A DNA stretch of 62,933 nt, filler included, from an uncultured bacterium (GCA_965372715.1; 4 parts of 4 records of this genome joined end to end with filler, not necessarily neighbours in it), one strand, 5' to 3'; counted from the whole stretch's first letter, positions 17,727 to 55,149 are shown. Numbers and translations: made by a program. Notes: a model not told the origin generated them from the sequence alone.

Positions 17727-17826
17727 NNNNNNNNNNNNNNNNNNNNNNNNNNNNNNNNNNNNNNNNNNNNTTAATTAATTAANNNNNNNNNNNNNNNNNN
17801 NNNNNNNNNNNNNNNNNNNNNNNNNN
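17727..17826. other. Artificial contig linker
   Basis: N44-TTAATTAATTAA-N44, stops in all six frames. Confidence 0.99.
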
Positions 17827-19833
17827 TGACGCCTGGCCCGCCTCGATCTTCTTCACCGCCCGGCCCACAGGACTTCCGTTCCTCTCTCGATACCATTCCA
17901 GCCAGGCGAACTGTGACGGCAAGCGGGTCGGCTGGGTGAACATGACGGAGATGAGGTCATACGCAACCGTGTCCAACGGGGTATCCTCCGTGTCCAGACA
18001 CCCGACGGTTCGCCGATTGATGTCGCAGGCGGCAAACCTCGCTCCCAACTCGTCGCGCGGACCGTTGAACGCAAAGGACAGGATGTCCGGCGGCGGCATC
18101 AGGTAAGAGGCCTGCCGCGCCCTAAGGAGCGCCTCGACGTCATCACGCCGAGTGATCTTTTCGTCGGCCTGCCCTATTACAACAAGCTCATCCAGCCTAG
18201 TGTCAGGGCATTCGGCGATCTTCTGAAGCACGTCTTCAATCAGAGCGAAGCGAAGCTCTCGGCCGGAGATGAGCGTTGCCAAAGCCCGAACACGGTCAAT
18301 AAAGACTGGCTCGCCCTCCTTGACGAATTCCGGCTTAGTCGCAACTACTGTGAGCGGCGCGGTTCGATCGGGCAACTGAGGGCCGAGTTTCACAGCATGA
18401 ACAGCAAAGTATTTAGGTTTTTTCGCGAGCGCGTTTTCTTCGGGCAACTGAGCGCCGAGACTCTCTACCGGGATCCTGCCCCTCCCGCCCAATCTACACG
18501 CCCAGGGGAAGTCCATCGCCAGACCGAAATTGCTGGCCGCGATGAGGGCCACCAGCATAAAGCCTACAACGCTTGAGGCCCGGAGCCGCCCTCTTCTCCA
18601 GGCATGTAATAGTAGAGCGAGTGCCAACGCAAGCCCTCCCAGCACGAATACGGAGCTCGGGCCGTCCTGCTTCACGAACGCGTAGAACGTGCCGCCCGCC
18701 AGTGCAACGAGTAACCCGATCTGAAGCGAAGCAATCCTGGGCCTGGGCCTCCCCTCGAACGTCTTTAGGACCAAGACCAGCATAAGCGCAAATGCGACGC
18801 TGGCGGGATAGCCATACCTCATCTGCGGTCCCTGGAGAAAGGCTGGACTCAGCAAGACCAAGGCTAGCAGAGCCAGAATCCGCGTTCTGGCCTGAAGCAC
18901 GCATAATAGAAAGAAAATCGCGCCAAGCGCCCCGAAGAAACCATATTCAACTGGACACCAAAGGATCGTCAACAAGCCATGGCCGGTCCTCAGCAAGAAG
19001 CTAGGCGTGATCTCTAGGGTGGGAGTCATAAAGGCCAGCGCGGACTTCAGCGTCATGTAGCCGGCAACCAGGACAACTGAGATCGCCGCTGCAATTAGAA
19101 TCCTTCTTTTCGCCCCTTCTGCAGGCCTCTCGAAGGGGAGGAACCAGATAAGCCCTAGTACAAGAGGCATGACCAGCGCAAACTCCTTGCTGGCTATGGC
19201 AAGGAGCATAGACAGAGATAGGGCAAACAGCGCGCCAATGCCGCCTTGACGCACGTACCTGACCGAAAACAGAACAGCTGATAGCATAAATGTCGTGCAG
19301 ATGGCGGTATCGTTGGCCGAAAGCCAGGCCACCGCCTCGAAGTTAAACCAAAAGACCGCAAACAGAAGCGAGGCGCACAGCGACCATACACGGTCAAGGC
19401 CTAGCAGTCTCCGCGCAACGACGGAAACGAGCACGGTGTTGATCAAGTGAACGAGGACGGCCACGGCGTGGTAATACTCGATTCGTGTCCCAAACACTGC
19501 GAATTTGAGAGCCCAGACATAATCAGCGAGAGGACGAAAGAACCTAGATTCCCCTGGACTCAGTCCCGGTCTTTCCCCTCTGAAGAAATAATTGACTAGA
19601 GTCTCGCCGAGCTCCTTGTGCCCGTAGGAGACGAAGTCATCGGTGAAAAGGTCGAACTCAAGAGACGGCAAATAAAGGCCGGCGAGCAATCCCAGTATCA
19701 AGAACCACAACCAGACGTAGCGAAACGTGGGCGTTCCCATTCTGTCCAAATCCGAAAGACCTGACCATTTCATCACTGACCCATCGGCAGCACTTGCGGA
19801 GTGCACGATCCAGTAACGATAGCAGCTGACCAC
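17827..19833 (-). CDS. GT-C-like multi-TM glycosyltransferase, 3' truncated at contig edge
   Basis: FTDDF acidic motif after TM1, FFRPL, YHAVAVLVHLIN, EAVAWLSA, ASKE; start uncertain. Confidence 0.75.
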
Positions 19834-19857
19834 TCTGAGTCAAGGCCAGTGGCTAGA

Positions 19858-20183
19858 CCCGAAAAATCAGATTGACGCCGGCGGCTCTGGCCTTTTGGAG
19901 TGCGGCGGCTTGACGCCGCTTTCATTGGTGGTGGCTTGACACCGCCCTCTCATAGATTGCCTTCTTGACCTTTCAGACGGTGGTCCGGAGGCCTGGACGC
20001 CAATCGACGTAGGGTCGATGCCGCGTCAAGCCGCGGCGAGCCAAAGCGGTGTCAAGCCACCGCACTCCGAAATCACCCAATGGGTGCAACTCACAGACCG
20101 ACTCCTGTCGAGCTCATAACCTCTGGGCAGCGAAAAAACGTGTTCATCCCTCCATGTCCTTTGCCGTCAATCTGATTATTAGG
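19858..20183. repeat. Composite GGAG-family REPIN/MITE-like element
   Basis: Inverted GGAGTGCGGCGGCTTGACGCCGCTTT ... AAAGCGGTGTCAAGCCACCGCACTCC with internal hairpins; right part recurs at 33943-34151, left part at about 49498-49596. Confidence 0.8.
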
Positions 20184-20602
20184 GCTAGAGGAGTTTCCCC
20201 AACGGGGAAACGGGAGAAAAGGGGAAAGGGAAAAAAGGAGAAGAGGGACTGCTGTGCCCCAGTGTAAAGGCTCCAAACCCCCCTCACGAACGCAGGGCGG
20301 CCTGTCGCGCGGGCCTTCTGCCAGATAGACGTATTCCACTTCCCAAGGGTCCTGAACGTGGCTATGCAGGAACTCACTCAAGGATTTGAACCTCGGGTTT
20401 GGGGAAACTCCTGCAGTAGCTAGGCCGGGCAATCAGATTGGCGGCGTTGACGTTGTGGGCTCATCTGTTTGAAAGGCGATTGATGTTGCCAATCGGCGGC
20501 AATGCTGCCGTCCATCCGTTCATGTCTGAGGCGAGCTCGGCACATGCGAGCCGACCAGTTTCGCTCGCCAGCAAAAGGATCTTTGGGAGTGCGGCACGCA
20601 CC

Positions 20603-20631
20603 TTGACAGGAATTGGGGTGGGTGATATTAG
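20603..20631 (+). promoter_or_regulatory. Sigma-70 promoter candidate for the duplicated membrane operon
   Basis: TTGACA-N17-TATTAG upstream of 20698. Confidence 0.55.
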
Positions 20632-20697
20632 AGGGGTTCGCGGTTAGGTTGGCGGCTACGGACGTTCTTTTCTCACGAATAGTCAGAGGGGAAGTAT

Positions 20698-21912
20698 TTG
20701 CGCACGCCTAGGTCGAGAAGGTCAGGTAGGTCACGGTCGGTTCCGGTCCAGGTTTTCTTACTTGCCGTTACGATAATGGCCGCGGGCGCGAGTTTTGGCG
20801 TGGGCACATCTTCGTCCGGCGTTCGCCCCGGGCCTCCGGTTAATCCTTCCGTGCGCGACAGGCCCAACGATGCGGGCTGTGCCATTGAGGTCACATGGGA
20901 GGCTTCTTTCGACGACTCCAGGGGCCGCGGAATCGTCAACTCATATTCGATTTTTCGCTCTTTGGAAGCGGTAAGTGGTTTTGCGAACGTAGCCACAATC
21001 AACTCAGGCCGTGAGCGATACCTATATGTTGACGAGAAGGTCGAGGACGACAAGCGGTATTTTTACAAGATAGTCGCGGAGACTGGAAGCGGCGCCTTCT
21101 CCGAGCCAAGCGTCATAGGCCCTGTCATCTCATCCGCCCAGTGGTTCCACACCGACCGCTACAACATGCTCTTCGCCTTGATCATTGTCTCGGCATCGGT
21201 ACTGATATTCATCTCTATGGCTCGCAAAGGGAAAGAGCTCTACATCAGGCCGATTGCTGGCCTCCAGGCGGTTGACGAGGCGGTGGGCCGCGCAACCGAG
21301 ATGGGGCGCCCCGTTCTCTACATTCCAGGCATTCTGGATATGGACGACGTCCAGACAATAGCCGGGGTTGCCATCCTGGGCCGGGTCGCAAGAAAAACAG
21401 CGGAATATGAGACGCCGCTGTCGGTCCCCGTTTCGCGCTCCGTCGTTATGTCCGCCGCGCAGGAGACTGTGAAGGAGGCGTATTGGGACATGGGCAAGCC
21501 GGACGCCTATCACCCGGAGATGGTTCGCTATCTCACTGACGATCAATTTGGCTACGCGGCCGGCGTCGATGGCATTATGCTCCGCGAGAAGCCCGCCACC
21601 GTCTTCTTTATGGGCGCGTTCTATGCGGAGTCTCTAATACTCGCCGAAACAGGCCACTCAATAGGAGCGATACAGATCGCGGGCACGGCCATGACCTCAC
21701 AGCTGCCGTTCTTCGTTACCGCGTGCGATTACACCCTCATCGGCGAGGAGCTCTTCGCGGCCGGGGCATACTTGACAGAAGACCCCCGCCTGCTCGGAAG
21801 CCTCAAGGGCCAGGACGTCGCCAAGGGGCTTGCGATTGCCTTCATAGTGATCGGGATCATCCTCGAGTCGTTCGGCTATCACTGGCTAACCGACTTCCTT
21901 AAAGTGAACTAA
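20698..21912 (+). CDS. Subunit A1: FN3 domain plus DUF6754-like membrane-anchored domain
   Basis: Signal-like N-terminus, FN3-like segment, TM, IRPIAGLQAVDEAVGRATEMG, AESLILAETG, QLPFFVTACDYTLIGEELFAA, C-terminal TM. Confidence 0.8.
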   Translation: MRTPRSRRSGRSRSVPVQVFLLAVTIMAAGASFGVGTSSSGVRPGPPVNPSVRDRPNDAGCAIEVTWEASFDDSRGRGIVNSYSIFRSLEAVSGFANVATINSGRERYLYVDEKVEDDKRYFYKIVAETGSGAFSEPSVIGPVISSAQWFHTDRYNMLFALIIVSASVLIFISMARKGKELYIRPIAGLQAVDEAVGRATEMGRPVLYIPGILDMDDVQTIAGVAILGRVARKTAEYETPLSVPVSRSVVMSAAQETVKEAYWDMGKPDAYHPEMVRYLTDDQFGYAAGVDGIMLREKPATVFFMGAFYAESLILAETGHSIGAIQIAGTAMTSQLPFFVTACDYTLIGEELFAAGAYLTEDPRLLGSLKGQDVAKGLAIAFIVIGIILESFGYHWLTDFLKVN

Positions 21913-21925
21913 TCAGGGCAGGTTC

Positions 21926-22567
21926 ATGAGGCGCGAATTTCCGCTGGTCATTACATTCGTTTGCGGCATCACGATGATCGTTCAGTTCTTCATCCCTCAC
22001 GAGCCTTTCGGCGGCATGAAGTCCTACTTCCAGCACTCTTACATGATCATTGCCGCGTTTGCGATGCTGCTGGGAATCGGCAACTTGACGAAAATCCACG
22101 TCAAGAAAATCCGCGACAAGAGACCACAGTGGGGATATAGCATCGTCCTTTTGGCTGGGTTGCTCGGCATGGCAATTCCGGGCCTCTTCATCGGCGGAAT
22201 CAAGGAAGACACCATCTTTGATTTCCTCTTCAAGAACGCGCACGTGCCGATGCAATCGACTATGTTCTCTCTTCTCGCCTTCTTCGTCGCCTCGGCCTCG
22301 TATCGCGCGTTTCGAGCGAGGACCGTGGATGCGGCGCTTCTTCTCATAGCCGGCTTCGTCGTCATGCTGGGCAGGGCGCCAATCGGCGATTATCTGACCT
22401 CGTTTATGCCGGACGGCTGGCAGATGTCCGATTACGCAAACTGGATAATGGCGATTCCGAATACGGCCGGCCAGCGTGCGATCATGATGGGCGCCGCGCT
22501 GGGCGTCGTTGCTACATCACTGCGTGTGATTCTCGGAATAGAAAGGAGTTACCTGGGCGGTGAGTAG
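21926..22567 (+). CDS. Subunit B1: conserved multi-TM membrane protein
   Basis: About 5-6 TMs, STMFSLLAFFVASASYRAFRART, LRVILGIERSYLG; paralog of 25320-26006. Confidence 0.85.
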   Translation: MRREFPLVITFVCGITMIVQFFIPHEPFGGMKSYFQHSYMIIAAFAMLLGIGNLTKIHVKKIRDKRPQWGYSIVLLAGLLGMAIPGLFIGGIKEDTIFDFLFKNAHVPMQSTMFSLLAFFVASASYRAFRARTVDAALLLIAGFVVMLGRAPIGDYLTSFMPDGWQMSDYANWIMAIPNTAGQRAIMMGAALGVVATSLRVILGIERSYLGGE

Positions 22568-23426
22568 CATGGCGCCCGCGATGAAACGCGGCATAGTCGA
22601 TAGGCTCAGGGACATTGATCGGCGCATCATATTCATCTTTATCGTCGCCGCGGTTGTCATCCCGCTCTTGAGGCCGATTGGCCTCCCTCTGAAATCCAGC
22701 CCGCCATCGAGGGCGCTTTACCAGCAGTTCGAGAGCCTCCCTCAAGGTGCGGTGGTGCTCATGGCTTTTGACTACGACCCCGCAACGGACGTCGAGCTCG
22801 GTCCGATGAGCCTCGCAATACTGAAGCACTGCTTCCGGAAGGGCCACAAGGTCGTGGGTCTCGCGCTTTGGCCGCAGGGCGCCGGCCTTGCCAGGGCGAC
22901 CTTTGCGGAAGCGGCAGAAGGATTCAACGTTAAATATGGTGTCGATTACGTCAACCTGGGCTTCAAGGCTGGGGGGCTTGTGGTCATCGATTCTCTGGGC
23001 AGGAGCTTCAGCGGGAGTTTCCCGAAGGACATTGACGGAAGACCGGTTGAGAACCTGCCGCTGATGAAGAACATCAACACCTACGCGGATATCGACTTCG
23101 TGATGAGCATGTCGGCCGGGGACCCCGGGCTTCCGTTCTGGATCATGATGGCCCAGGGCCGCTACGGCAAAAAGGTCGGCGGCGGCTGCACAGCCGTTTC
23201 GGCCCCGATGCTCTATCCATATTACCCGAACCAGTTGGTTGGCCTCTTAGGAGGCATGAAGGGCGCCGCGGAATACGAGCTCCTGGTCAGTGCCAAGGGC
23301 GCCGCAACGAAAGGTATGGACGCGCAATCGATCGCGCACGCCGCCATAGTGTTGTTCGTCATCATCGGGAACATCTTCTACTTCATCAGCAGGCGGCGTG
23401 AAGGCCGAGGAGGCTCTCGGATATGA
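22560..23426 (+). CDS. Subunit C1: membrane-anchored alpha/beta protein of unknown function
   Basis: DRRIIF N-terminal TM, FDYDP...EL, YGVDYVNLG, GLLGGMKGAAEYE, MDAQSIAH C-terminal TM; paralog of 26018-26884. Confidence 0.85.
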   Translation: MSSMAPAMKRGIVDRLRDIDRRIIFIFIVAAVVIPLLRPIGLPLKSSPPSRALYQQFESLPQGAVVLMAFDYDPATDVELGPMSLAILKHCFRKGHKVVGLALWPQGAGLARATFAEAAEGFNVKYGVDYVNLGFKAGGLVVIDSLGRSFSGSFPKDIDGRPVENLPLMKNINTYADIDFVMSMSAGDPGLPFWIMMAQGRYGKKVGGGCTAVSAPMLYPYYPNQLVGLLGGMKGAAEYELLVSAKGAATKGMDAQSIAHAAIVLFVIIGNIFYFISRRREGRGGSRI

Positions 23427-24043
23427 GCCTCGAGTTCAGCACGTGGCTGGCAGCGCTTCTGACGCTCTGCATCTTCAGTTTTCTTTACAAGGATAATCCC
23501 TTCTATAAGTTTGCCGAACACCTCTTCGTCGGTATCTCCGCTGGCTACTGGCTCTGCTATAACTACTGGAACATGGTCAAGCCAAACCTGATCGATAACC
23601 TCTGCGAACACGAATGGCGGTATCTTCTTCCGGCAGTCCTTTCCGCATTCATGCTCATGAGGCTGGTTCCCAAAATTGGATGGCTCTCCAGGTGGCCGAT
23701 TGCGTTCATGGTCGGCTCCGGCGCCGGCCTCATGATTATCACCTATTTGCAGACGAACTTCCTCCAGCAGATAAGAAATACATTGGTTTCGCTTGACCCA
23801 GCCGGGCAGCCCTGGTATGTTGTCTTTGATAGTCTCTTACTCTTCGCGGGTGTGGTATCTGGACTTGTTTATTTCTTCTTCTCAAAGGCTCATACGGGCG
23901 TTACGGGCGGCGTTGCTCGCGTCGGCGTCGTCTTTCTCATGGTATGCTTTGGCGCCTCGTTCGGATACACCGTCATGGCGCGTATCTCACTTCTGATCGG
24001 AAGGATGTACTTCTTGATGCACGAATGGCTTGGATTGGTATAA
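23423..24043 (+). CDS. Subunit D1: conserved multi-TM membrane protein
   Basis: FLYKDNPFYKFAEHLFVGISAGY, FGASFGYTVMARISLLIGR; ATGA overlap with C1; paralog of 26886-27542. Confidence 0.85.
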   Translation: MSLEFSTWLAALLTLCIFSFLYKDNPFYKFAEHLFVGISAGYWLCYNYWNMVKPNLIDNLCEHEWRYLLPAVLSAFMLMRLVPKIGWLSRWPIAFMVGSGAGLMIITYLQTNFLQQIRNTLVSLDPAGQPWYVVFDSLLLFAGVVSGLVYFFFSKAHTGVTGGVARVGVVFLMVCFGASFGYTVMARISLLIGRMYFLMHEWLGLV

Positions 24044-25274
24044 CGTGCCAAGATTGAGGAGTAATCTGCGTCTTCTCTCGCCTGGCTTATCCCCGGCATT
24101 CGTATTCTCTTTCTTGATCGTATTGTTCGCCCTTTGTGGCACAGCATATTCTCAGGTGGAAGCCTTCGACGCCCCTCCCGCCCCAGCCACGAATGTAGTG
24201 CTGAAGGACGCACCCGACGACGAAGGTGGCGCGATAACGATTTACTGGACGCTTTCGGCGGATGATGCAGGCGGAGCAATGGACGTCGTTGGTTATGAGA
24301 TCCGTCGCTCGGAGGTTCCCCATGGCCCGTTCGAGACCGTCAAGTCGGTTCCGAGGGGTTCTTCTGAAGCCGCGGACGAGACCGACCTCGAAAACGACGT
24401 CAACTACTTCTATCAGGTTGTGGTCAAGGACGTCTCAAGTGAAACGCCCTCCGCAGTGGCAGGTCCGATTCAGGCGAAGGTTCAGTGGTTCAATCTTGGC
24501 CGCCTCAACACTCTTATCGTAACTTCCATCTATATCGGTCTTCTCCTGTATTTCATCTTGCACGCCAAGAAGGGCACGAATCTATTCATCCGTAGGATCG
24601 CCGGCCTTGATGCGCTTGACGAGGCGGTTGGCCGGGCAACTGAAATGGGCAAGCCGATTCTATACGTTCCTGGTATCAGCACTATCAGCGACGTTGCCAC
24701 AATAGCGTCGATTAACATCCTGTCGGGCGTCGCCAGGACCGTCGCGGAATACGATACGAGGATAATCGTGCCGAACTACGACCCGATCGTGATGACGGTG
24801 GCTCAGGAGGTTGTCAGGGAGGGGTTCCTGGCGGCAGGGAAGCCCGACGCCTATAACGAGCAGGACGTGTTCTACGTGACCACGAACCAGTTCGCGTTCG
24901 TCGCCGCCGTTGATGGGATCATGGTCCGCGAGAGGCCAGCCACGAACCTATTCATTGGCATGTTCTTCGCAGAATCGCTGATTTTGGCGGAGACCGGCGC
25001 ATCGACCGGCGCAATCCAGATAGCCGGCACCGACGCGGTCGCCCAGCTGCCGTTCTTCATAGCGGCCTGCGATTATACTCTCATCGGCGAGGAGCTCTAC
25101 GCGGCGAGCGCTTACCTGAGCCGTGCTCCGTTGCTTATGGGCAGCCTCAAGGGACAGGACTGGATGAAGATATTTCTTATTGGCTGCATCCTGATTGGTA
25201 TTGTTACGCTCTTGTTTGACTATGAAGGCTTCAAGAATCTGTTTGAGACACCATTGATGATTTTTAGGCAGTAA
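24030..25274 (+). CDS. Subunit A2: FN3 domain plus DUF6754-like membrane-anchored domain
   Basis: Same motifs as A1 (IRRIAGLDALDEAVGRATEMG, ACDYTLIGEELYAA); start may be GTG 24045. Confidence 0.8.
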   Translation: MDWYNVPRLRSNLRLLSPGLSPAFVFSFLIVLFALCGTAYSQVEAFDAPPAPATNVVLKDAPDDEGGAITIYWTLSADDAGGAMDVVGYEIRRSEVPHGPFETVKSVPRGSSEAADETDLENDVNYFYQVVVKDVSSETPSAVAGPIQAKVQWFNLGRLNTLIVTSIYIGLLLYFILHAKKGTNLFIRRIAGLDALDEAVGRATEMGKPILYVPGISTISDVATIASINILSGVARTVAEYDTRIIVPNYDPIVMTVAQEVVREGFLAAGKPDAYNEQDVFYVTTNQFAFVAAVDGIMVRERPATNLFIGMFFAESLILAETGASTGAIQIAGTDAVAQLPFFIAACDYTLIGEELYAASAYLSRAPLLMGSLKGQDWMKIFLIGCILIGIVTLLFDYEGFKNLFETPLMIFRQ

Positions 25275-25319
25275 CGTTGTTTGGCGGGCTTGTGGGTTGT
25301 ATAGGACTTCAGATTTGAC

Positions 25320-26006
25320 ATGATGAGAAGACAGCTTCCTCTCATAATCTGCTTCGTTGCTGGCATGGTGATGTTGGCGCAGAACTTCATCCCTCCGCTA
25401 ACGTGGATATATCAGCAAGCGATCGCCTGGGCAAGGATCATAGCGAGTATTGCGCTCTTCATAGGTTTGATCAGCCTGGTCCGTGTGCACACAACCAAAT
25501 TGAAGCGAAAGGCCCCTGGCTGTCAGTATAGCTATGTAACCCTCTTCGCTCTGTGTTACATGATGCTCGCCGGACTCCTGACTCGCTATCACTTCTTTGT
25601 TTGGCTGCATGACAAGAGCGACGCTGGCTCGACAGGCGATTACATTGTCTCGGTATTCGAGAACGCATTCAACTTCCAGGAGTTATTCCTGAATATTCAG
25701 ATCCCTATTCAGGCTACGATGTTCTCCCTATTGGCGTTCTTTATCGCCTCGGCGGCGTTCCGCGCTTTTAAGGCGAGAACGTTTGAGGCGACGCTGCTCC
25801 TGATCGCGGCGACGGTCGTCATGCTCGGTCGTGTGCCGCTCGGCCAGATGATTCCGTGGATACCGGAGATCACAACTTGGATTCTTGAGGTGCCGAACAC
25901 AGCCGCAAAACGCGGAATAATGATTGGTGTCGGCCTGGGCATGAGCTCAACAGCATTGAAGATCATGCTCGGGATCGAGCGGACATATCTGGGCATGAAA
26001 GACTAG
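25320..26006 (+). CDS. Subunit B2: conserved multi-TM membrane protein
   Basis: ATMFSLLAFFIASAAFRAFKART, MLGIERTYLG. Confidence 0.85.
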   Translation: MMRRQLPLIICFVAGMVMLAQNFIPPLTWIYQQAIAWARIIASIALFIGLISLVRVHTTKLKRKAPGCQYSYVTLFALCYMMLAGLLTRYHFFVWLHDKSDAGSTGDYIVSVFENAFNFQELFLNIQIPIQATMFSLLAFFIASAAFRAFKARTFEATLLLIAATVVMLGRVPLGQMIPWIPEITTWILEVPNTAAKRGIMIGVGLGMSSTALKIMLGIERTYLGMKD

Positions 26007-26017
26007 GTGAGACAGCG

Positions 26018-26884
26018 ATGAGTTTTCTGCGGTTCTTACTCAGGATGGACAGGCGGATCGTTTTCGTCCTCGTTGCGCTTGCTGTTGTAACGCCGTTGAT
26101 ATTTCCGCTCAATCTGCCGATTGAGGTTACCCAGCCAGTACGGCAACTGCATTCAGCGATTGACCGGCTTCCGGCCAGGAGCCGCCCTGTTCTCGTCTCC
26201 GTGGATTATGATCCATCGACCGTGCCGGAGCTTATGCCGATGACGCTCGCGGTTCTCAGACACTGCTTCAGCAAAGAGATACCAGTCATCGTAACAACTA
26301 TGCTCCCCGCCGGCGCAGGACTTGCAAGAGACGCCATGGAGACCGTTGCGAGAGAATATCCCAATCTGTCCTATGGGACGGATTACGCATATATGGGCTA
26401 CAAGCCCGGCTATTCGCTGGTCATGCTCGGAATCGGTGAGGACTTTCATCAGACCTATCCCTCGGATGGATTTGGAACTCCGAGCTCGGAGCTGCCAATC
26501 CTCAAGAACGTGAAGAACTACGATGATATAGCTATGGTGGTTGATTTCACGGCCTCAGCAGCTTATGAGGTCTGGATCATGTTTGCGCATCAGAAATATG
26601 GATGCATGGTCGGCGCAGGAGTTACCGCTGTCATGGCAAGTGATGCGTATCCGTACCTGAACGCGGGGCAGCTTGAGGGATTGCTCGGCGGCCTCAGCGG
26701 GGCCGCCGAATACGAGAAGCTCATCGACAAGCCGGGAGATGCCACCGTCGGAATGGATGCCCAGTCCATTGCGCACATCCTCATCATCATTCTGATTATC
26801 CTCGGCAACATCGCCTACTTCGCTACGAGGCGCGAGGGCAATACGACTCAAACTGCCGCTCGGCAACAGGGAGCCAGCAAATAA
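26018..26884 (+). CDS. Subunit C2: membrane-anchored alpha/beta protein of unknown function
   Basis: DRRIVF, VDYDP...EL, YGTDYAYMG, GLLGGLSGAAEYE, MDAQSIAH. Confidence 0.85.
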   Translation: MSFLRFLLRMDRRIVFVLVALAVVTPLIFPLNLPIEVTQPVRQLHSAIDRLPARSRPVLVSVDYDPSTVPELMPMTLAVLRHCFSKEIPVIVTTMLPAGAGLARDAMETVAREYPNLSYGTDYAYMGYKPGYSLVMLGIGEDFHQTYPSDGFGTPSSELPILKNVKNYDDIAMVVDFTASAAYEVWIMFAHQKYGCMVGAGVTAVMASDAYPYLNAGQLEGLLGGLSGAAEYEKLIDKPGDATVGMDAQSIAHILIIILIILGNIAYFATRREGNTTQTAARQQGASK

Positions 26885-26885
26885 C

Positions 26886-27542
26886 ATGACTGGAATTGAG
26901 CTCTTCTGGGCCTGGGTTGCCGCATTTCTCACGCTGAGTATCTACTCATTCCTATACAGGGACAATCCCTTCTATAAGTTCGCCGAGCATCTCGTCGTCG
27001 GCGTCTCTGTCGGTTACATCTTCACGATCAACTGGTTCCAGGGACTGCACCCCTATCTGTTCGACCCGCTGGCAGATTCCGGGGACAACCCAATCAACCT
27101 GCTCCGACTCATACCCGCTTTCCTGGGCCTGCTATTCCTGCTCAGAATCAGCCGCAAATACAACTGGCTGAGCCGATTCACGATCGCCCTTCTAATGGGG
27201 ATAAACTGCGGTGTGGCGATTCCCTACACGATTGAGACCAGGATCATCCAGCAGACCAAGGCCTCAATGATAAACCTCATTGACCAGCCGAGCTTCTGGG
27301 CGGGCTTCTGCAGCGTTCTGATTCTCATTGGCACAGTCTGCACCCTGATCTTCTTCTTCTTCTCGAAGGAGCACAAAGGCGTCCTGGGTGGCACGGCAAG
27401 GGTCGGCATTGTCTTCCTCATGGTCGGCTTCGGCGCCTCATTCGGCTACACCGTCATGGCCCGTATATCGCTTCTGATCGGCCGCCTCAACTTCCTCATC
27501 AACGACTGGGTTCTTGGCACCTGGGACTTCATCTGCGGATAG
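26886..27542 (+). CDS. Subunit D2: conserved multi-TM membrane protein
   Basis: FLYRDNPFYKFAEHLVVGVSVGY, FGASFGYTVMARISLLIGR. Confidence 0.85.
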   Translation: MTGIELFWAWVAAFLTLSIYSFLYRDNPFYKFAEHLVVGVSVGYIFTINWFQGLHPYLFDPLADSGDNPINLLRLIPAFLGLLFLLRISRKYNWLSRFTIALLMGINCGVAIPYTIETRIIQQTKASMINLIDQPSFWAGFCSVLILIGTVCTLIFFFFSKEHKGVLGGTARVGIVFLMVGFGASFGYTVMARISLLIGRLNFLINDWVLGTWDFICG

Positions 27543-27614
27543 AAGCGATCTATCGCCCCACCCGCTGGTTTACGTGCCATTGTTCCCTCGCGCGAATGGA
27601 CGCGCTTCGGTGTC

Positions 27615-27730
27615 GTAGCAGGCCCCCGCGCCTGCCCTATCTTATTGATCGTAAAGGGCAACCGCGGGGGGATTGCCCCTACACTGAGCGGGCGGCCACT
27701 TATGTCCCAGCCTCCAAGCACCGCCCCTAC
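27615..27730. repeat. Cluster of degenerate GTAG-family REPs
   Basis: GTAGCAGGCCCC... paired with ...GATTGCCCCTAC, plus a further CAAGCACCGCCCCTAC. Confidence 0.65.
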
Positions 27731-27790
27731 ACCATGTTTTCGTCGGTGTGCTAATCTCTCTGTGTTCTTAGCACGTAAGGGAAGGAGAGA

Positions 27791-29695
27791 ATGCAGGACA
27801 GTTTCGCCAGACGAAAGGCCGCATACATAGACCTCTCAAACGGGAAGGTGGAGCAGCGGCAGATTCCCGAAGATGCGAGGCGGACGCTGCTCGGCGGGCG
27901 AGGCGTCAATATGCTTGCGCTGCTCAAATACGCGCCGCCTCATCTCGAGCCGCTCTCGCCTGAGTCGCCGCTTATTGTGGGTAACGGCCTTCTATCCGGC
28001 ATCCCGGGCATCTGCCTTGCGAGAACGTCTATCTCCGGCGTCTCACCCGAATCGGGACTGCTGGGCGATTCCAACGTTGGCGGCCACTTCTGCGCCTCGA
28101 TGCGCCGGACCAGTTTTGATCTGCTGGTGATTACCGGCGAATTCGAGGGCCCCAGCATCATCGTCATTGACGGCGACGCGGTCTCCTTTGAGGACGGCGC
28201 CTGGCTGTGGGGCAGGGATGCGTTCGAGGCGCAGGACGCGCTGAAGTTGCGGTTTGGGAAGGATGCTGAGGCGCTGGTCATTGGCCCGGCCGGGGAGAAC
28301 CTGATTCGCTTCTCTCAGGTGCGAGCAGGTGGGCGGCACGCGGCGTCGAGGACAGGCCTCGGCTGCGTCATGGGCGCGAAACGCATCAAGGCTATCGTTG
28401 CCAGAGGAAGGAAACGGGACATGATGGCAGACCTCTTCGACCGTGACGCGTTTGCACGGCTTACGAAGCGCCTGCGCAAGGTAGTGTCGAGCGTTGACGT
28501 TGTGAGGCATCTCGCCAAACGCGGCACGCCATTCTTGTACGACGTGCACAGCCGCATGGGACTGATAAGAACCAAGAACGCCACGTCCGAGCCGCTCGAG
28601 AAAGGCAATGCGCTTCGCAGCTCGAGGCTCGTCGAGAGATACTACGTTGGCCGGTCGGGCTGCTTCTCGTGTCCCGTCCGATGTCAGCACAGCTACAGGA
28701 TACCCGACGGCAAATACGCCGGCATCGAGGGGCACGGCATCGAATACGGCACGCTCGGCACAATCGGCCCTGTCCTCGGAATCGCCGACCTTGACGCAGT
28801 CCTCGCAATCAATCACAGGCTCAACCGCCTCGGCATCGACTCCTGCACGACCGGCAACCTCATCGCCGCAGCAATCGAGCTCTTTCAACGCGGTGTCATA
28901 ACCGAGAAGGACACGGGCGGACTGCGCCTCAGCTGGGGCGACGCCGACATGGTCATGCAACTTGCCGACCTTATCGCCAGAAAAGAGGGCTTCGGGGCGC
29001 TTCTCGCGGAAGGCGCCAGCGCATTGTGCGAGCGATTCGGCGAGGTGGCAAGGGACGCTATGATCTGGTCGAAGAAACTGCCGCAGTCGGACCCGGTGGA
29101 TGTTCGCGGCCACAAGGGCTTTGCGCTCGGCGTCGCGACGGCCACACGAGGCGCGGACCATCTGCGGTCGCGGCCCACGCTTGAGGCGCTGAACCTGAAT
29201 AGCAAACGGCTGAAAGAGATGTTTGGCGTGGAAGTCTCGCCGGACCCCGCGTCTTACGTTGGGAAGGCTGAGATGGTTCGCCACTCCGAGTCCCTCTTCG
29301 CCGTGTCGGACGCGGTCGGAATATGCAGGTTTGTCGTCAAGTTCAACAGCCCTGACCTTCTGGGCTTTGAGGAATTGGCCGAATACATCAGCGCCGCCAC
29401 GGGGCTAGACCTCAGCCCGGCGGACCTCGAGACAATCGGCCAGCGGATCAACACAATTGAGCGATTTTGGCTCGCCAAACGCACGAATGGCGAGAAGCTC
29501 GACGGCCTCCCGAAGCGCTACTCGGAGCCGATGCCCGCCGGCCGCTTTAAGGGCCAACGCATCGAACAGCGCGAGTTTCGAGCAGCCCTGTCCCGCTTCC
29601 ACGAGATATCGGGCCTCGACCCGGCGACCGGCGCCCCGCTCGAAAGCACGCTTCGCGAGCTAGGCATAGACGATTCGCTGCTTGAGCTGGTGTGA
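27791..29695 (+). CDS. Aldehyde:ferredoxin oxidoreductase family (W/Mo-pterin, 4Fe-4S)
   Basis: LGGRG, SPESG, IGPAGEN, GLGCVMGAKRIKAI, GCFSCPVRC, EYGT, RGADHL, GICRF motifs. Confidence 0.93.
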   Translation: MQDSFARRKAAYIDLSNGKVEQRQIPEDARRTLLGGRGVNMLALLKYAPPHLEPLSPESPLIVGNGLLSGIPGICLARTSISGVSPESGLLGDSNVGGHFCASMRRTSFDLLVITGEFEGPSIIVIDGDAVSFEDGAWLWGRDAFEAQDALKLRFGKDAEALVIGPAGENLIRFSQVRAGGRHAASRTGLGCVMGAKRIKAIVARGRKRDMMADLFDRDAFARLTKRLRKVVSSVDVVRHLAKRGTPFLYDVHSRMGLIRTKNATSEPLEKGNALRSSRLVERYYVGRSGCFSCPVRCQHSYRIPDGKYAGIEGHGIEYGTLGTIGPVLGIADLDAVLAINHRLNRLGIDSCTTGNLIAAAIELFQRGVITEKDTGGLRLSWGDADMVMQLADLIARKEGFGALLAEGASALCERFGEVARDAMIWSKKLPQSDPVDVRGHKGFALGVATATRGADHLRSRPTLEALNLNSKRLKEMFGVEVSPDPASYVGKAEMVRHSESLFAVSDAVGICRFVVKFNSPDLLGFEELAEYISAATGLDLSPADLETIGQRINTIERFWLAKRTNGEKLDGLPKRYSEPMPAGRFKGQRIEQREFRAALSRFHEISGLDPATGAPLESTLRELGIDDSLLELV

Positions 29696-34634: not shown

Positions 34635-37229
34635 ATGAGGATTCTGCGGTTTTCTTCCGCGGTTTTAGTGATTGTGCTTTTCGTGGGGGCTCAGGAGAGG
34701 ATTTCCGTTGCTCGATCGCCCACGATCGACCATGCGAGCTACATCCCGTACTTTGATCTGCCCTACCGTTACCGCGATCTCTCCCTGGGGCAAGGTAGGA
34801 TTGCGGTGGGCACCGAGCAAGGGGCGGTGCTGATAGACAGGGCAACGGGTTTGCAGACTCACCTTTTCTCATCGGAGGAAGCGTCCGTTGTCGGGCTTGT
34901 GGCCGGCGGGGAGCTCTGGTCAATCCTTCCGTGGCTCTTGACTAGTTATGAAGGGCCTGGCCAGGCCACGAAGGGGGCGATACGTTGCTATGACGGGTTA
35001 GGATTGCGCGACTTTGACGAGCGTTGCGGTCTTCCGGGCATTGGCGGTGGCTCGCCGTGGGCCATCGTGAACCCGGCGTTCGTCCGCGACATGGCCGGGG
35101 AGATTTGGTTCGCGTATCCGGAAGGAATATGGCACTTCGACGGGCAAAGCTACGAGAGCTTCCTTGTGGACGACCTTCTACCAGGCAACTCAGTGCGCGC
35201 TTTCGCCATTGATACCTTGGACAGAAAGTGGGTGGGCCTTGTCGGGGCGGTTGCCGTCCTGGATGCCGGCGACTGGAGGATTTACTGGCTCGAGGATACT
35301 CTGGGGCCGGGCCAGGCGCAGAAGATTGCTCCGGGCGTCGCTGGAGACATCTGGGTGCTCTGGGGGACATGGGGTGTGTACCCCGGGGGAGTTCTGAAGG
35401 TCATGCATTTTGTCGATGGCGAACTCACTGTCCTCTCGTTTGACCCGCCGGTAGAGACATGGGCGTCAATGGCCGTGGACGCGCAGGGCCGTGTGTGGAT
35501 AGGGACTCGTGGTGATGGGGCCTACTTCCTCGACGGAGGGGCCTGGCGGCGTGTTACCATGGCTGACGGCCTGGCCACTGATTACATCGTGGACATTGAC
35601 GCTGATGACGAAGGGGATGTTGGTTTTCTGTGCAACCCGGCTGACGATTCATGGGGAGCGTCTTGCGTTGTCTCGGTCCTTTCAGAGGGTTCTTGGCTCA
35701 CCTATCATGTCCAGGCTGACTTGCCGTGGGAGGAGGCGGACATTCTCAAAATCGATGACGAGGGGTCGATATGGCTTGGAGGCGGCGAGACCTGGTCCTC
35801 CCAGACAGACTTCCTATGGCGTATCGGTCGAGGGGGGCGTTGCGATAGCTTCCCTCCCCCGGCTGCGTCTCTGCTTCGCCTTGGACCAGCCCGGCTGGGC
35901 GAGAGCTTCGTTTTTGCCTGGGCTGGCTCTGATGAGTATGGCTTGGCAGTTCTTGACGGCGACACTTGGCAGACACGCACTGATTGGGACGGTATTCCGC
36001 TTAGCAACATCGCCCAGATCGAGGCAGACGCATTCGGGAGGCTCTGGCTGCGGCGGGACCTGGGCCCATATCAGCCCACTTCGCTGGTGTGTATCTGGCC
36101 GGAGGCGAACTGGGCGGCTGAGTTCCGCCCCAGAGGTTACCCGTTTGACATATCTCGCATCGCACCCGACCGCGTGGATGATTGCATCTGGTTGTCATTC
36201 AAAGGGAGGGAGCAGTGTTACGGTTACGGCCGGTATGGAGGCTTTCAGAAGCTCAGTGCAACGGGCATCGAGCGGATACTCGAGAATGCACCTCGTTCCT
36301 ATGTGGGGGTTGACGCACGAAACATGAAGTGGCTGAGGGAGTGGACAGGAACATCTACGCGCTTCGAGTTATTCGACGGCCAGAACTGGCACGATATGCC
36401 AGCCCTGCCCTGGCCCAACCTGAGGATACCGAGTGGCGATACGGCACGGATAGTGGAACACAGCGGTGATTTCGTGGCGCTGCTCTATGACCGCGAGAAG
36501 AAGTCGGCGGTGCTGGACGACCGTAACGCTGGCAGTACTTGCTCGGTGATTGCGGTCTATAATGGGGAGGAGTGGCGCGGCTTCACCTGCCCCGAATCGG
36601 TTGCGCAGAGCAGCACTGCCATCACTGGGGTGGATTGGCTTGGGAACTACTGGTTGGGGCTCGGGGTCCTCGTGCCGCCGGAGAACTTCATCCTTGCTCC
36701 GAAGGCCCGCGTCGCAAACCTGGAGACTGACGAGTCGCTTCAGCTCAGCATGTCGATAGAGTATCGGGCGCATCCGCACAACGCGGACATCTATGTTGGG
36801 ATTCAGGCGCCGAGCGGGCAGGTATTCTACGTTGCACCTCAAGAGGCGGCGCCTCCGTTTCCGATATTCTATGCGGCGTTTGCTGGCAGCACTCAGTTCT
36901 TGGAGCCGGGGCCTTACTACGACGGGCCGGGGTCGATACCGAACACGCCGGACATGAAGGACCTCGCGCCTCCGCCGCTGCCCCTGCCTGACCCGCCCGA
37001 CGGCCAGGGCCCGACCGGCCTCGCCCTCTTCGCCTACCCCGTGCCCTACTTCGCCAACGTCCCGCTGCCCGCATACGGCTCAATCGAGAACCTCGTCCTC
37101 CTCAACACCGAGCTCCCCGAAGAGGCGCCAACAGGCACATACACGTTCCACGTCGGCATGACCGCCCCCTCCTCAATCTCAAACCTCTATCGCACCGCGC
37201 AAACCACCTTCGAGGTGACGGAACAGTGA
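34635..37229 (+). CDS. Secreted beta-propeller protein 1 with conserved C-terminal module
   Basis: GGAG RBS, signal peptide, repeats such as AIDTLDRKWVG, AVDAQGRVWIGT, ADGLATDYI. Confidence 0.85.
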   Translation: MRILRFSSAVLVIVLFVGAQERISVARSPTIDHASYIPYFDLPYRYRDLSLGQGRIAVGTEQGAVLIDRATGLQTHLFSSEEASVVGLVAGGELWSILPWLLTSYEGPGQATKGAIRCYDGLGLRDFDERCGLPGIGGGSPWAIVNPAFVRDMAGEIWFAYPEGIWHFDGQSYESFLVDDLLPGNSVRAFAIDTLDRKWVGLVGAVAVLDAGDWRIYWLEDTLGPGQAQKIAPGVAGDIWVLWGTWGVYPGGVLKVMHFVDGELTVLSFDPPVETWASMAVDAQGRVWIGTRGDGAYFLDGGAWRRVTMADGLATDYIVDIDADDEGDVGFLCNPADDSWGASCVVSVLSEGSWLTYHVQADLPWEEADILKIDDEGSIWLGGGETWSSQTDFLWRIGRGGRCDSFPPPAASLLRLGPARLGESFVFAWAGSDEYGLAVLDGDTWQTRTDWDGIPLSNIAQIEADAFGRLWLRRDLGPYQPTSLVCIWPEANWAAEFRPRGYPFDISRIAPDRVDDCIWLSFKGREQCYGYGRYGGFQKLSATGIERILENAPRSYVGVDARNMKWLREWTGTSTRFELFDGQNWHDMPALPWPNLRIPSGDTARIVEHSGDFVALLYDREKKSAVLDDRNAGSTCSVIAVYNGEEWRGFTCPESVAQSSTAITGVDWLGNYWLGLGVLVPPENFILAPKARVANLETDESLQLSMSIEYRAHPHNADIYVGIQAPSGQVFYVAPQEAAPPFPIFYAAFAGSTQFLEPGPYYDGPGSIPNTPDMKDLAPPPLPLPDPPDGQGPTGLALFAYPVPYFANVPLPAYGSIENLVLLNTELPEEAPTGTYTFHVGMTAPSSISNLYRTAQTTFEVTEQ

Positions 37230-37437
37230 GCGCATGCACCGCCAGCGGGAAGCGCCAGCTCCCTGATAGTTTTGCGCAATCATGGGGCCTCGCCGGTCTT
37301 TTGAGGTCTGAATGTGCGTTTTGTCAGCTTTCAGGGCATTTGACACGAATCCTGCTGCGTAAAACATTTGGCGAAAGGTTGTAAGACATGTTGACCATCA
37401 ATAGGGGAGGCAACCAGGATTGGGAAACGGAGGTTAG

Positions 37438-37674
37438 AGACCGCGGTACACATACGCATGGCTAGACTACAAATATGGCGCGGCGATTCGCCATGATTAC
37501 GCCCTTAATTATATGGGGGACCGGATCTTGGATGACATGAACCTCTTCAAAAACACATACGAGAACTTCCTAAGTCGAAGGCACAGCTTGTCTTGTGTGC
37601 AGGAATATGCCTCTAAGTTTCCTGCAACTGACGATTTGCCAAGTGACGATGTGCTGATGACCTACTGTAACTAA
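37438..37674 (+). pseudogene. Start-less 3' gene remnant (copy 2)
   Basis: Reads RPRYTYAWLDYKYGAAIRHDY...SCVQEY...LPSDDVLMTYCN*, preceded by an in-frame TAG; lacks about 50 aa present in copy 1. Confidence 0.7.
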
Positions 37675-37736
37675 AGGCCCTTCACTTGAGAGGTATGAGC
37701 ACCTAACATCAACTCTGAGGATAAGGAGATAATCCT

Positions 37737-40337: not shown

Positions 40338-40449
40338 GCGCATGTACCGCCAGCGGGAAACGCCCCCTGCCTGTTACTTCTGCACGATTCTGGGCCTCGC
40401 CGGCCTCTCCGAGGCGCGTGTGTGCGTTTTGTCAGCTTTCAGGGCACTT

Positions 40450-40465
40450 TGGCACGGATCCTGCT
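40450..40465 (+). promoter_or_regulatory. Sigma-54 (-24/-12) promoter candidate
   Basis: TGGCACGGATCCTGCT matches TGGCAC-N5-TTGCW with correct GG/GC spacing, 74 bp upstream of ATG 40540. Confidence 0.65.
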
Positions 40466-40539
40466 CAGTAAAAGGGCAGCATGAGGTTGTAATGTATTCT
40501 GGGAATGAATAGGGCCGTTGATTTGACTCGAAAGGAGAG

Positions 40540-43287: not shown

Positions 43288-44715
43288 CTACCGGCGCTTC
43301 TCGAATAGCAGGTATTTGAGGAAGCCGGCTGCGGTTGAGGCGTAGTATTTGAGGGCCTTCAGGCTATTGATGCGCCTCAGTGTGGCGAGGATGAAGCTCG
43401 GCGAGAAGGAGTAGCGCAGGTAGAACCAGCGCTGGAGCCTGACGAGCTCCTCCGAGGAGAAGTGCTCGGTGCGCCAGGACGGCTGTGTGTGCGTGCAGTC
43501 GAACTTCTCCCAATCCAGCGTCTCAGGCATGTAACCGCCCGCTTCCATCATGTCGTAAAGCTCTGTCCCCGGGAAGGGAGTCACGACGTTGACGACAATG
43601 AAGTCGGGCGCGACGCGCTTGGCCAATTTCAGCGTCATCTTCACCTCGGCAAGCGTCTCGCTGGGGTGGCTGCCAATGATGAAAAACGCCTGCGTTAAGA
43701 GGCCAACTCTCTTCGCGGCATCAAAGGCGGTGGTGATCTGCTCCTGCGTCGTGCGCTTCTTGATCAAGTTCCTTATCCGCTGGCTGCCCGATTCGATGCC
43801 GAAAGCCACTTTCTTGCAGCCGGCGGCCTTCATGTCGGCGAGCATCGGCTCATCGACGGCGTTGACACGCGTGTCGCAATCCCAGGCGATTCCGAGCGAC
43901 GCAAAGCCCTCGAGTATCCTCTCGAGGCGCTTTCTGTTGAGCGTGAACGTGTCGTCATCGATCGTGAAGTGGTCAAAACCGAACTTGCCGATGCAGTCCT
44001 TGACCTCGGCCAGGACGTGCTCCGCGGAGCGGAAGCGGAGCTTGCGCAAGAAGGTGATCTTGGACGCGCAGAACGTGCAATCCTCGGCGCATCCTCGCGA
44101 CGTGAACAAGACGGTCGAGTTGCAGGCAGAATCGCCCACGCCGGGCGTTGTTCCGCTCCGATACAGCTCGAGGTTTAGAAGATGTCTAGCTGGAAACGGT
44201 AGCGCGTCCAGGTCTTTTATCAGCGGCCTTCTCTGTTCGAGGACGACTTCCGAGCCCGTGCGATACGCGACGCCTCGCACGCCGTCCAGCTTCGGGACCT
44301 TGCGGTCAGCGACGCGCCGGCAGACCTCGAGCAGCGTCTCTTCGCCCTCGCCGAACACTGCAACGTCGAACGCCTCGAATTCCTCCAAAGCACGCTGCGG
44401 CATGGCGCTGATATGCGGCCCCCCGGCCACCGTGAGCGTCTCCGGCGAGTGCCTCTTGATGATCCCGGCGAGCCGATTTGCGGCAATAACGGTCGGCGAA
44501 AGGCACGTAAAGCCGACCAGGTCGGGTCCGTAATCCAAGACCCTGGCCGCAAACTCATCGTCGGTCGGGAATGCGATCTCAAAATCAATTATCCTTACCT
44601 CAATGCCATTTGAGAGCAGATATGCGGCGAGTGTCGCGATGTTGATCGGGTGTTGAACGGAGCTTTTTTCGAGGCCGCCCATGATCCTGGGTGGCCTGAC
44701 GATTAGCGCTTTAAT
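43288..44715 (-). CDS. B12-binding radical SAM protein (probable ATT start)
   Basis: GGPH, GEGE, SRGCAEDCTFC, DDDTF, GIESG, TPFPGT; N-terminal strand IKALIVRPP begins at ATT 44715. Confidence 0.9.
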   Translation of the reverse strand: MKALIVRPPRIMGGLEKSSVQHPINIATLAAYLLSNGIEVRIIDFEIAFPTDDEFAARVLDYGPDLVGFTCLSPTVIAANRLAGIIKRHSPETLTVAGGPHISAMPQRALEEFEAFDVAVFGEGEETLLEVCRRVADRKVPKLDGVRGVAYRTGSEVVLEQRRPLIKDLDALPFPARHLLNLELYRSGTTPGVGDSACNSTVLFTSRGCAEDCTFCASKITFLRKLRFRSAEHVLAEVKDCIGKFGFDHFTIDDDTFTLNRKRLERILEGFASLGIAWDCDTRVNAVDEPMLADMKAAGCKKVAFGIESGSQRIRNLIKKRTTQEQITTAFDAAKRVGLLTQAFFIIGSHPSETLAEVKMTLKLAKRVAPDFIVVNVVTPFPGTELYDMMEAGGYMPETLDWEKFDCTHTQPSWRTEHFSSEELVRLQRWFYLRYSFSPSFILATLRRINSLKALKYYASTAAGFLKYLLFEKRR

Positions 44716-55061: not shown

Positions 55062-55149
55062 GATGCCCGACACCGAATTATGACCCAGTCTCCTCGTCTG
55101 CGCCCGTTTCAGCTTACGGGACAGCCTCTTCTGGTGAAAGGCGCGATTG

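Follow-up and report, generated by a model that had tools for sequence, protein, structure and literature searches.

Two sets of four genes are chained in one cluster

The stretch of DNA analysed here (62,933 nucleotides, referred to below as the 62.9-kb window) comes from an uncultured bacterium (GCA_965372715.1) and carries, from position 20698 to 27542, eight open reading frames (ORFs) on the plus strand that constitute two paralogous gene sets, each in the order A-B-C-D (Table 1). The ORFs occupy the stretch that a first-pass annotation of the sequence had given for them, and its description of eight co-oriented, tightly packed genes in two paralogous sets is borne out by the ORFs themselves, the gaps between them and BLASTP identities of 41 to 50% between the sets, which are far beyond chance. 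The seven motifs that it quoted as shared by the sets are present, letter for letter, in both of them. The two sets are also chained to each other as tightly as genes are chained inside one set, as judged from all seven junctions along the cluster (gaps of 13, -8, -4, -14, 45, 11 and 1 nt, respectively); A2 starts 14 nt before D1 ends. No additional copy of any subunit was found outside the two sets when the window was searched by tblastn.

When the two sets were compared by BLASTP, identical residues amounted to 190/410 (46%; E = 1e-113) for A, 96/233 (E = 3e-55) for B, 120/265 (E = 2e-60) for C and 102/205 (E = 6e-64) for D. Identity between sets differed by region, i.e., it was 33% in the fibronectin type III (FN3) region of A, 44% in the C domain and 62% in the DUF6754 core of A; the parts that probably face outward thus diverge faster than the cytoplasmic DUF6754 core. 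No Walker A, CxxC or CxxCH pattern is present in any of the eight proteins; the first-pass annotation had likewise noted no Walker A, Fe-S, heme or FMN-binding motif.

Table 1. Position and main characteristics of features in the window, numbered from its first base.
Feature	Position	Strand	Length	Characteristics
A1	20698-21912	+	404 aa	DUF6754, E = 3.1e-124
B1	21926-22567	+	213 aa	polytopic, approx. 6 helices
C1	22560-23426	+	288 aa	helix, Rossmann-like alpha/beta domain, helix, basic tail
D1	23423-24043	+	206 aa	polytopic, approx. 6 helices
A2	24030-25274	+	414 aa	A1 paralogue; DUF6754, E = 1.3e-119
B2	25320-26006	+	228 aa	B1 paralogue, 41% identity; longer loop between helices 3 and 4
C2	26018-26884	+	288 aa	C1 paralogue, 45% identity
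D2	26886-27542	+	218 aa	D1 paralogue, 50% identity
Promoter-like site	20603-20637	+		TTGACA (20603-20608), 17-nt spacer, TATTAG; approx. 90 nt 5' of A1; weak
Terminator-like hairpin	27618-27635	+		76 nt 3' of D2; weak
PMT_2-like ORF	17779-19833	-		membrane glycosyltransferase (GT-C); 3' end enters masked bases, translation ends in X
Inverted repeat	19893-20072			imperfect; 53-nt arms, 77% complementary, 74 nt apart
Further GGCTTGACRCCGC matches	34014, 47953, 49553
Three successive ORFs	34635-43032	+	864, 866, 830 aa	last two with 'Reg_prop' beta-propeller repeats, first with no Pfam match
B12-binding radical SAM protein	43288-44682	-
Carbamoyltransferase	45447-47141			near the radical SAM genes
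B12-binding radical SAM protein	49764-51110	-
Methylase/Mrr-type ORF	55147-56772	+	541 aa	N6/N4 DNA methylase and Mrr-type restriction-endonuclease-like domain
Radical SAM/SPASM protein	56813-57937	+

Subunit A combines a variable ectodomain with a highly conserved DUF6754 domain

The assignment of A to DUF6754 in the first-pass annotation was correct. Against the Pfam profile of this family (PF20539; cut-off 27 bits), A1 scored 413.7 bits over profile positions 2 to 256 of 257, and A2 scored 398.5 bits. Hydropathy and profile comparisons give A1 a basic and hydrophobic N-terminal signal or anchor sequence (aa 17-35), an FN3-like region (approx. aa 44-145), a helix (aa 157-175) and a C-terminal helix (aa 374-392), with DUF6754 (aa 146-400) placed as a stretch between two hydrophobic helices. 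The FN3 assignment is supported by matches of the A profile to titin FN3 chains (E = 1.8e-15 and 6.6e-13, positions 28-136) and by a structural model in which this region forms a beta-sandwich (predicted local distance difference test score [pLDDT] of 80-93). For A1 we favor the TTG start codon, because a 404-aa homologue (91% identity) covers 100% of the resulting protein and because only this start yields a signal sequence. Both A1 and A2 share the layout of FN3 followed by DUF6754 with named database matches, which are often labelled "fibronectin type III domain-containing protein".

Among 112 aligned sequences, the DUF6754 core contained 43 invariant columns, and in the listed long forms of A, including those of Eremiobacterota and Armatimonadota, the DUF6754 part was 56 to 66% identical to that of A1. 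The ectodomain, on the other hand, is exchanged in other lineages for PQQ/BamB-like beta-propellers, several FN3 domains or repeats that resemble the C domain; among the 120 listed of 701 long forms, the PQQ/BamB-like ectodomain was common in Eremiobacterota, Armatimonadota and Vulcanimicrobiota. In one of these 120 forms, found on one contig (P0169), a PMT_2-type glycosyltransferase of the GT-C class takes the place of the ectodomain.

Subunits B, C and D belong to no named family

None of B, C and D reached the cut-off of any Pfam or NCBIfam family, and their profiles, compared to the sequences of the PDB, gave no match at E values up to 1. Hydropathy indicates approx. six helices each in B and D and one helix at each end of C. 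Conservation in B1 is highest in helices 4 and 5 (TMFSLLAFF...YRAFRAR), and the conserved motifs of D1 are YKDNPFYKFAEH and FFFSKxH, located in loops that are probably cytoplasmic, as well as FGASFGYTVMARISLL in the last helix. Loose Pfam scans of 43 relatives of B and 39 relatives of D returned helix noise only, and we read in the same way the sub-threshold matches of 18 of the 43 B relatives to TMD0_ABC (best E = 0.00043). In Protein Atlas, the clusters closest to B carried no names and D had no usable match.

The AlphaFold2 model of C (pLDDT 93.4; predicted template modeling score 0.87) shows a six-stranded Rossmann-like alpha/beta domain between two helices. The best fold matches obtained with Foldseek and VIA-align were 1kjn (Z = 10.6; 138 residues, root mean square deviation 3.3) and TrkA/KTN domains (Z of approx. 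8 to 9), followed at Z of approx. 8 by short-chain dehydrogenases, half-domains of GT-B glycosyltransferases and lobes of sugar-binding proteins; these are generic Rossmann-like matches with 5 to 13% identity and Z scores in the range common for such a fold. The sole GxGxxG-like string in C is at residue 207 in C1 and 199 in C2, i.e., late in the domain and not after strand 1. Invariant residues R21, R22 and F25 precede helix 1 of C. Although these residues could be taken as a Tat export signal (RR-x-x-F), their spacing is unlike that of the Tat motif and a long hydrophobic stretch follows; in addition, two of five carrier genomes, one of them a chromosome-level assembly, gave no match to TatC, and we rejected Tat export as a general property of C. 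Domains similar to C also occur in other settings, namely with a HEAT-repeat insert of approx. 350 aa (P0242) and preceded by double zinc-ribbon regions at the N-terminus (P0246 and P0248).

We also considered whether the cassette could be a doubled two-gene unit but obtained no evidence of this; profile-profile comparison gave A and C a probability of 10.7% over 20 columns and B and D one of 0.3%. When B, C and D were co-folded with residues 146-404 of A as partner, the scores were 0.78, 0.77 and 0.78, respectively, as compared to 0.00 and 0.00 for controls with the partner replaced and 0.75 for the control with C replaced; we used these values neither for nor against binding.

Natural fusions suggest the topology of the cassette

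A search with C as query found ten long forms, several of which bear on the orientation of the subunits. P0244 (four member sequences from three contigs) combines a lipoprotein-type signal, a C-like domain, FN3 and DUF6754 in that order, with one helix before DUF6754 and one after it; in P0245, four C-like repeats replace the A ectodomain; P0241 has two C-like domains between an N-terminal and a C-terminal helix; and P0243 is a fusion of C and D with one added helix at the joint. In P0153, RHS-like repeats follow the last helix of A, which fits an outward-pointing C-terminus. Taken with the positive-inside pattern, these fusions suggest that the alpha/beta domain of C is extracytoplasmic, on the same side as FN3, and that DUF6754 lies inside; by the same evidence D would start outside and the most conserved loops of B and D would face the cytoplasm. 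From hydropathy and the fusions together, each cassette would form one inner-membrane unit with approx. 16 helices. The window proteins have the architecture of the cassette, i.e., ectodomain-helix-DUF6754-helix for A and helix-alpha/beta-helix for C, with the domain of C predicted on the opposite side of the membrane.

The two sets represent old paralogue classes

The relationship between the two sets was assessed in a tree of DUF6754 domains (112 rows, FastTree). A2 grouped in a clade of 23 rows (support 99) that also contains the final sets of those Zixibacteria-type loci in which two or three sets are present, and A1 was placed on the opposite side of the tree, beside single-set loci of WOR-3, Latescibacteria and Stahlbacteria. 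The split between A1 and A2 thus predates these lineages, and the tandem duplication proposed in the first-pass annotation cannot be read as a recent tandem copy, since the sets belong to old paralogue classes that are common to other phyla.

The other subunits follow A in this respect. Among 115 sets, the type of A (nearer to A1 or to A2) agreed with the type of the subunit from the same set in 95 of 98 comparisons for C, 96 of 97 for D and 99 of 108 for B. These data suggest that each cassette is inherited and diverges as a whole, in agreement with cognate complexes.

Gene order is conserved and an actin-fold ATPase recurs beside the cassette

At least 8,000 relatives of A exist, as all 8,000 scored candidates passed; the named ones are from Coatesbacteria (80% identity), Latescibacteria, WOR-3, Stahlbacteria and Zixibacteria. 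At least 592 relatives of A were identified when species genomes were scanned, and 80 loci were kept, to which all locus counts given here refer. Where at least 2.7 kb of sequence was available downstream of A, B, C and D followed in that order in 103 of 105 cases, distributed over many phyla; the subunits therefore co-occur in fixed order elsewhere, and the view of the first-pass annotation that they form an uncharacterised multi-subunit membrane system holds. The two exceptions are a solitary A in L040 (CP070824.1), with none of the other three genes within 10 kb, and a second A followed by a partial B only in L015 (13694-15035). One complete set was present in 38 loci, two in 16, three in 11 and none in 15, many of the latter on short contigs. 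Median gaps were 11 to 13 nt inside sets and 29 nt between sets. Among close relatives of the window (75 to 98% identity), the tandem of two A-B-C-D sets is kept in L087 and L088.

Two further genes recur upstream of the cassette, i.e., one for a GlmL/MutL-type actin-fold ATPase of approx. 618 aa (PF13941; 22 loci) and one for an unnamed protein of approx. 375 aa (23 loci). PF13941 was found in 24 of 25 genomes of the phylum of G001 (Coatesbacteria) and in all nine further DUF6754 carriers tested (4/4 and 5/5); in eight genomes with both families on one contig (G006, G007, G009, G010, G012, G014, G016 and G017; see also L083), it was located between two DUF6754 matches. Genomes usually encode one full-length ATPase as compared to one to at least six DUF6754 matches. 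Genes of the TonB type were less frequent neighbors (ExbB in 12 loci, ExbD in 8, TonB in 8 and TonB-dependent receptors in 5). In a Coatesbacteria chromosome (L019; G001:C1:382270-393314), two cassettes are convergent and PF13941 is split into two oppositely oriented pieces (profile positions 1-206 and 171-450), suggestive of an inversion through the gene or of an assembly error.

The first-pass annotation had proposed that the eight genes encode a secondary transporter or channel, with two specificities or as a hetero-octamer. A self-contained, ion- or proton-coupled transporter or channel that works with no ATPase, with the two sets joined in one hetero-octamer, would agree with the lack of nucleotide-binding motifs in the eight proteins and of an ATPase gene of this type in the window, with the invariant charged residues in or beside the helices of B and D and with the translational chaining of the sets through the overlap of D1 and A2. 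However, the linkage of PF13941 and its partner to the cassette in other genomes points to ATP coupling, and only one of the carrier genomes tested was without the ATPase, which makes the term "secondary" doubtful. An obligatory hetero-octamer is unlikely as well, because single-set loci and genomes are common (e.g., 12 of 17 genomes in the phylum of G029 have a single DUF6754 match) and one set therefore suffices, and because the subunit types co-diverge within a set, as would be expected of separate cognate complexes. Overall, we consider this explanation improbable.

The cassette is nearly universal in several phyla

The A-B-C-D cassette has a very wide distribution, in candidate phyla of the FCB group as well as outside this group, and the window contains two complete, anciently diverged copies of it. 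DUF6754 was present in all 285 genomes of the phylum of G048 (Zixibacteria-type; usually five matches each), in 24 of 25 genomes of the phylum of G001 (usually two matches) and in all 17 genomes of the phylum of G029 (usually one match), and the 2.3-Mb WOR-3 chromosome G002 had six matches. None of 14 control genomes, all from model organisms, had a match.

We weighed the possibility that the cassette is a housekeeping machine of the cell envelope, which would flip, recycle, insert or export a lipid-linked or polymeric precursor, with DUF6754 and the ATPase at the inner face and C and the A ectodomain at the outer face. The distribution described above and an A core that is extremely conserved between distant phyla would suit this explanation, as would the replacement of the ectodomain by a GT-C glycosyltransferase in P0169 and the divergent PMT_2-like gene upstream of the cassettes in the window and in the close relatives L085 and L088 (two PMT_2-like matches in each of these two loci). 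Conversely, one to at least six DUF6754 matches per genome with usually one full-length ATPase would be unusual for a biogenesis machine, the GT-C fusion represents a single listed long form from a single contig, and PMT_2 was not among the recurrent neighbors in the 80 loci. The glycosyltransferase part of P0169 also shows no significant likeness to the PMT_2-like protein of the window (E = 0.86), and we kept the PMT_2 link as a lead only. We judge an envelope machine to be unlikely, yet it is the most credible of the explanations that do not invoke uptake.

The cassettes may be substrate-specific units of an ATPase-coupled transport system

Our preferred reading, to which we assign a probability of roughly 40%, is that each cassette forms a membrane unit with its own substrate specificity within a modular transport system that is coupled to an ATPase and probably serves uptake. 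Under this hypothesis, A would present an exported, lineage-variable ectodomain (FN3 in the window) and an extremely conserved cytoplasmic alpha/beta domain, i.e., DUF6754; the outward domain of C and the ectodomain of A would meet the cargo; the helices of B and D would form its path; and the cytoplasmic DUF6754 would dock a shared energising pair consisting of the GlmL/MutL-type ATPase and its partner of approx. 375 aa. In this organism the pair would be encoded outside the window, and the two sets would serve two different cargoes. The uptake reading draws on four observations, i.e., the number of cassettes per genome relative to the usually single ATPase pair, the divergence of cassettes as units, the combination of variable outward parts with a nearly frozen cytoplasmic face, and the occasional presence of TonB-type uptake genes in the neighborhood. 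Two specificities for the two sets are plausible, and transport as such is an inference.

A more far-reaching version, which we put forward tentatively and regard as clearly less probable, is that the cassettes are units of an unrecognised class of primary active transport or group translocation, in which one cytoplasmic pair of ASKHA ATPase and partner serves several cassettes, C and the swappable ectodomain of A capture the cargo, and the window holds two anciently separated specificities in one operon.

Several results weigh against the uptake hypothesis. No subunit matches a transporter family (as assessed with Pfam, NCBIfam and profiles against PDB sequences, B and D by sequence only), and the structural likeness of C is to a fold shared by proteins of many kinds. 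The near-universality of the cassette within phyla and the conservation of the A core suit a housekeeping machine as well as they suit nutrient uptake. A folded alone gave a pLDDT of 62.8, with values below 40 over residues 285-371. The Fisher values for the concordance of subunit types ignore shared ancestry, which inflates them, and the co-occurrence of PF13941 with DUF6754 is no true test of association, as the phyla sampled are saturated, with nearly all genomes containing both. Only a minority of the loci, related among themselves, have TonB-type neighbors. Finally, neither the PF13941 ATPase nor the partner of approx. 375 aa had a tblastn match in the window, and coupling is thus assumed for this organism.

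The fold of the ATPase and the nature of the ectodomains also allow a different role, namely a transmembrane device for anchoring, signalling or motility, in which the variable ectodomains would bind partners in the wall, in the outer membrane or outside the cell and DUF6754 would connect to the ATPase as a cytoskeleton or motor. The ectodomains are classic protein- or glycan-binding modules (FN3, beta-propeller, RHS-like repeats) that are swapped between lineages, and the ATPase is a member of the actin/Hsp70 fold superfamily that weakly matches an MreB-like C-terminal domain. According to its Pfam matches and to descriptions of the families, however, PF13941 is closest to GlmL- and hydantoinase-type enzymes rather than to filament formers; moreover, two six-helix proteins with invariant intramembrane motifs exceed the needs of an anchor, and motility or chemotaxis genes were not recurrent near the cassette in the 80 loci. 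We therefore regard such a device as the least probable of the explanations discussed.

Relation to known transport systems

The first-pass annotation had proposed an uncharacterised transporter or channel, and our searches at the sequence level (Pfam, NCBIfam and profiles against PDB sequences) gave no match to a characterised transporter family. The best score for any transporter family among the eight proteins in Pfam and NCBIfam was that for Na+/H+ antiporter subunit G, with 17.2 bits as compared to a cut-off of 151. By sequence, there was no family match to MFS, TRAP, TTT, Mrp, PTS EIIC or other secondary transporters and channels, and the eight proteins have neither the Walker A motif nor an ABC family match that would make them ABC transporters. 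A1 and A2 are full-length members of the Pfam DUF6754 family, but this family is catalogued only, and its entry describes subunit A alone; no family model exists for B, C and D.

In the phosphotransferase system (PTS), general EI and HPr proteins serve many EII complexes, and in energy-coupling factor (ECF) transporters one EcfAA'T module serves many S components. The cassettes resemble both in that a genome has several membrane units and usually one full-length cytoplasmic energising pair; the likeness is one of organisation and does not imply membership. Unlike PTS, ECF and ABC systems, no component of the module has a match to their families, the cassette proteins contain no Walker A motif, and the linked ATPase has an actin (ASKHA) fold; no transporter is known to be driven by an ATPase of this fold. 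Gene pairs for GlmL/MutL-type ASKHA ATPases (PF13941) adjoin the cassette in other genomes, whereas neither gene is in the window. The domain of C aligns with 1kjn (MTH777), with the KTN/RCK domains of TrkA/KtrA and with lobes of periplasmic sugar-binding proteins, but differs from them in its position between two helices and its predicted extracytoplasmic location. Operons for TonB-dependent uptake (ExbB/ExbD/TonB and receptor) are neighbors of the cassette rather than parts of it, and they are absent from the flanks of the window's cluster. Literature searches by accession found no paper on DUF6754, PF20539 or PF13941, and broader word searches gave nothing relevant among the matches listed. 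The window is one of thousands of instances of the module.

Flanking sequences and other features of the window

The first-pass annotation had placed all eight genes behind one TTGACA promoter. The hexamer itself is real, but the site was missing from the list produced by our consensus promoter scan of positions 19800 to 27900, and a single promoter was not borne out, as the three promoter-like sites observed in this region compare to 4.9 expected from shuffled sequence. Terminator-like sites showed no excess over chance either (eight observed, 7.2 expected). In an Rfam scan, tRNAs alone reached gathering scores, and none was located in or adjoining the cluster. A search of sequencing runs gave 18 rows, each with a small share of the words searched and none of them listed as RNA.

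Upstream, the cluster is flanked by the divergent PMT_2-like glycosyltransferase gene, and downstream by genes for an aldehyde:ferredoxin oxidoreductase, a class-V aminotransferase and a 2-hydroxyacid dehydrogenase. The window contains 264 N, all between positions 17727 and 49696 inclusive, and one run of these truncates the 3' end of the PMT_2-like ORF. The 864-bp gap between this ORF and A1 contains the inverted repeat listed in Table 1, which carries four copies of GGCTTGACRCCGC and has a predicted RNA fold of -105.9 kcal/mol (z = -7.0) with no Rfam match; in the window as a whole, GGCTTGACRCCGC has seven matches as compared to 0.26 expected. This inverted repeat may represent a palindromic repeat element, a cluster of operators or a structured leader.

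Elsewhere in the window, three long co-oriented ORFs follow each other, and two B12-binding radical SAM proteins and one radical SAM/SPASM protein are encoded within 15 kb. The ORF with a methylase and an Mrr-type domain may, from its domain content, encode a fused restriction-modification enzyme.

Implications

Few membrane proteins of several large, mostly uncultured phyla are as conserved as these four, which often occur there in two to six copies. Whether the job of the module is uptake, envelope building or another one, it is probably central to how its carriers live. The window represents a clean case in which two old cassette classes are chained with no ATPase gene beside them, and the fusion proteins found in other genomes give a topology that can be tested. 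If it is true that an actin-fold ATPase drives the module, this would represent a new way of energising membrane work.

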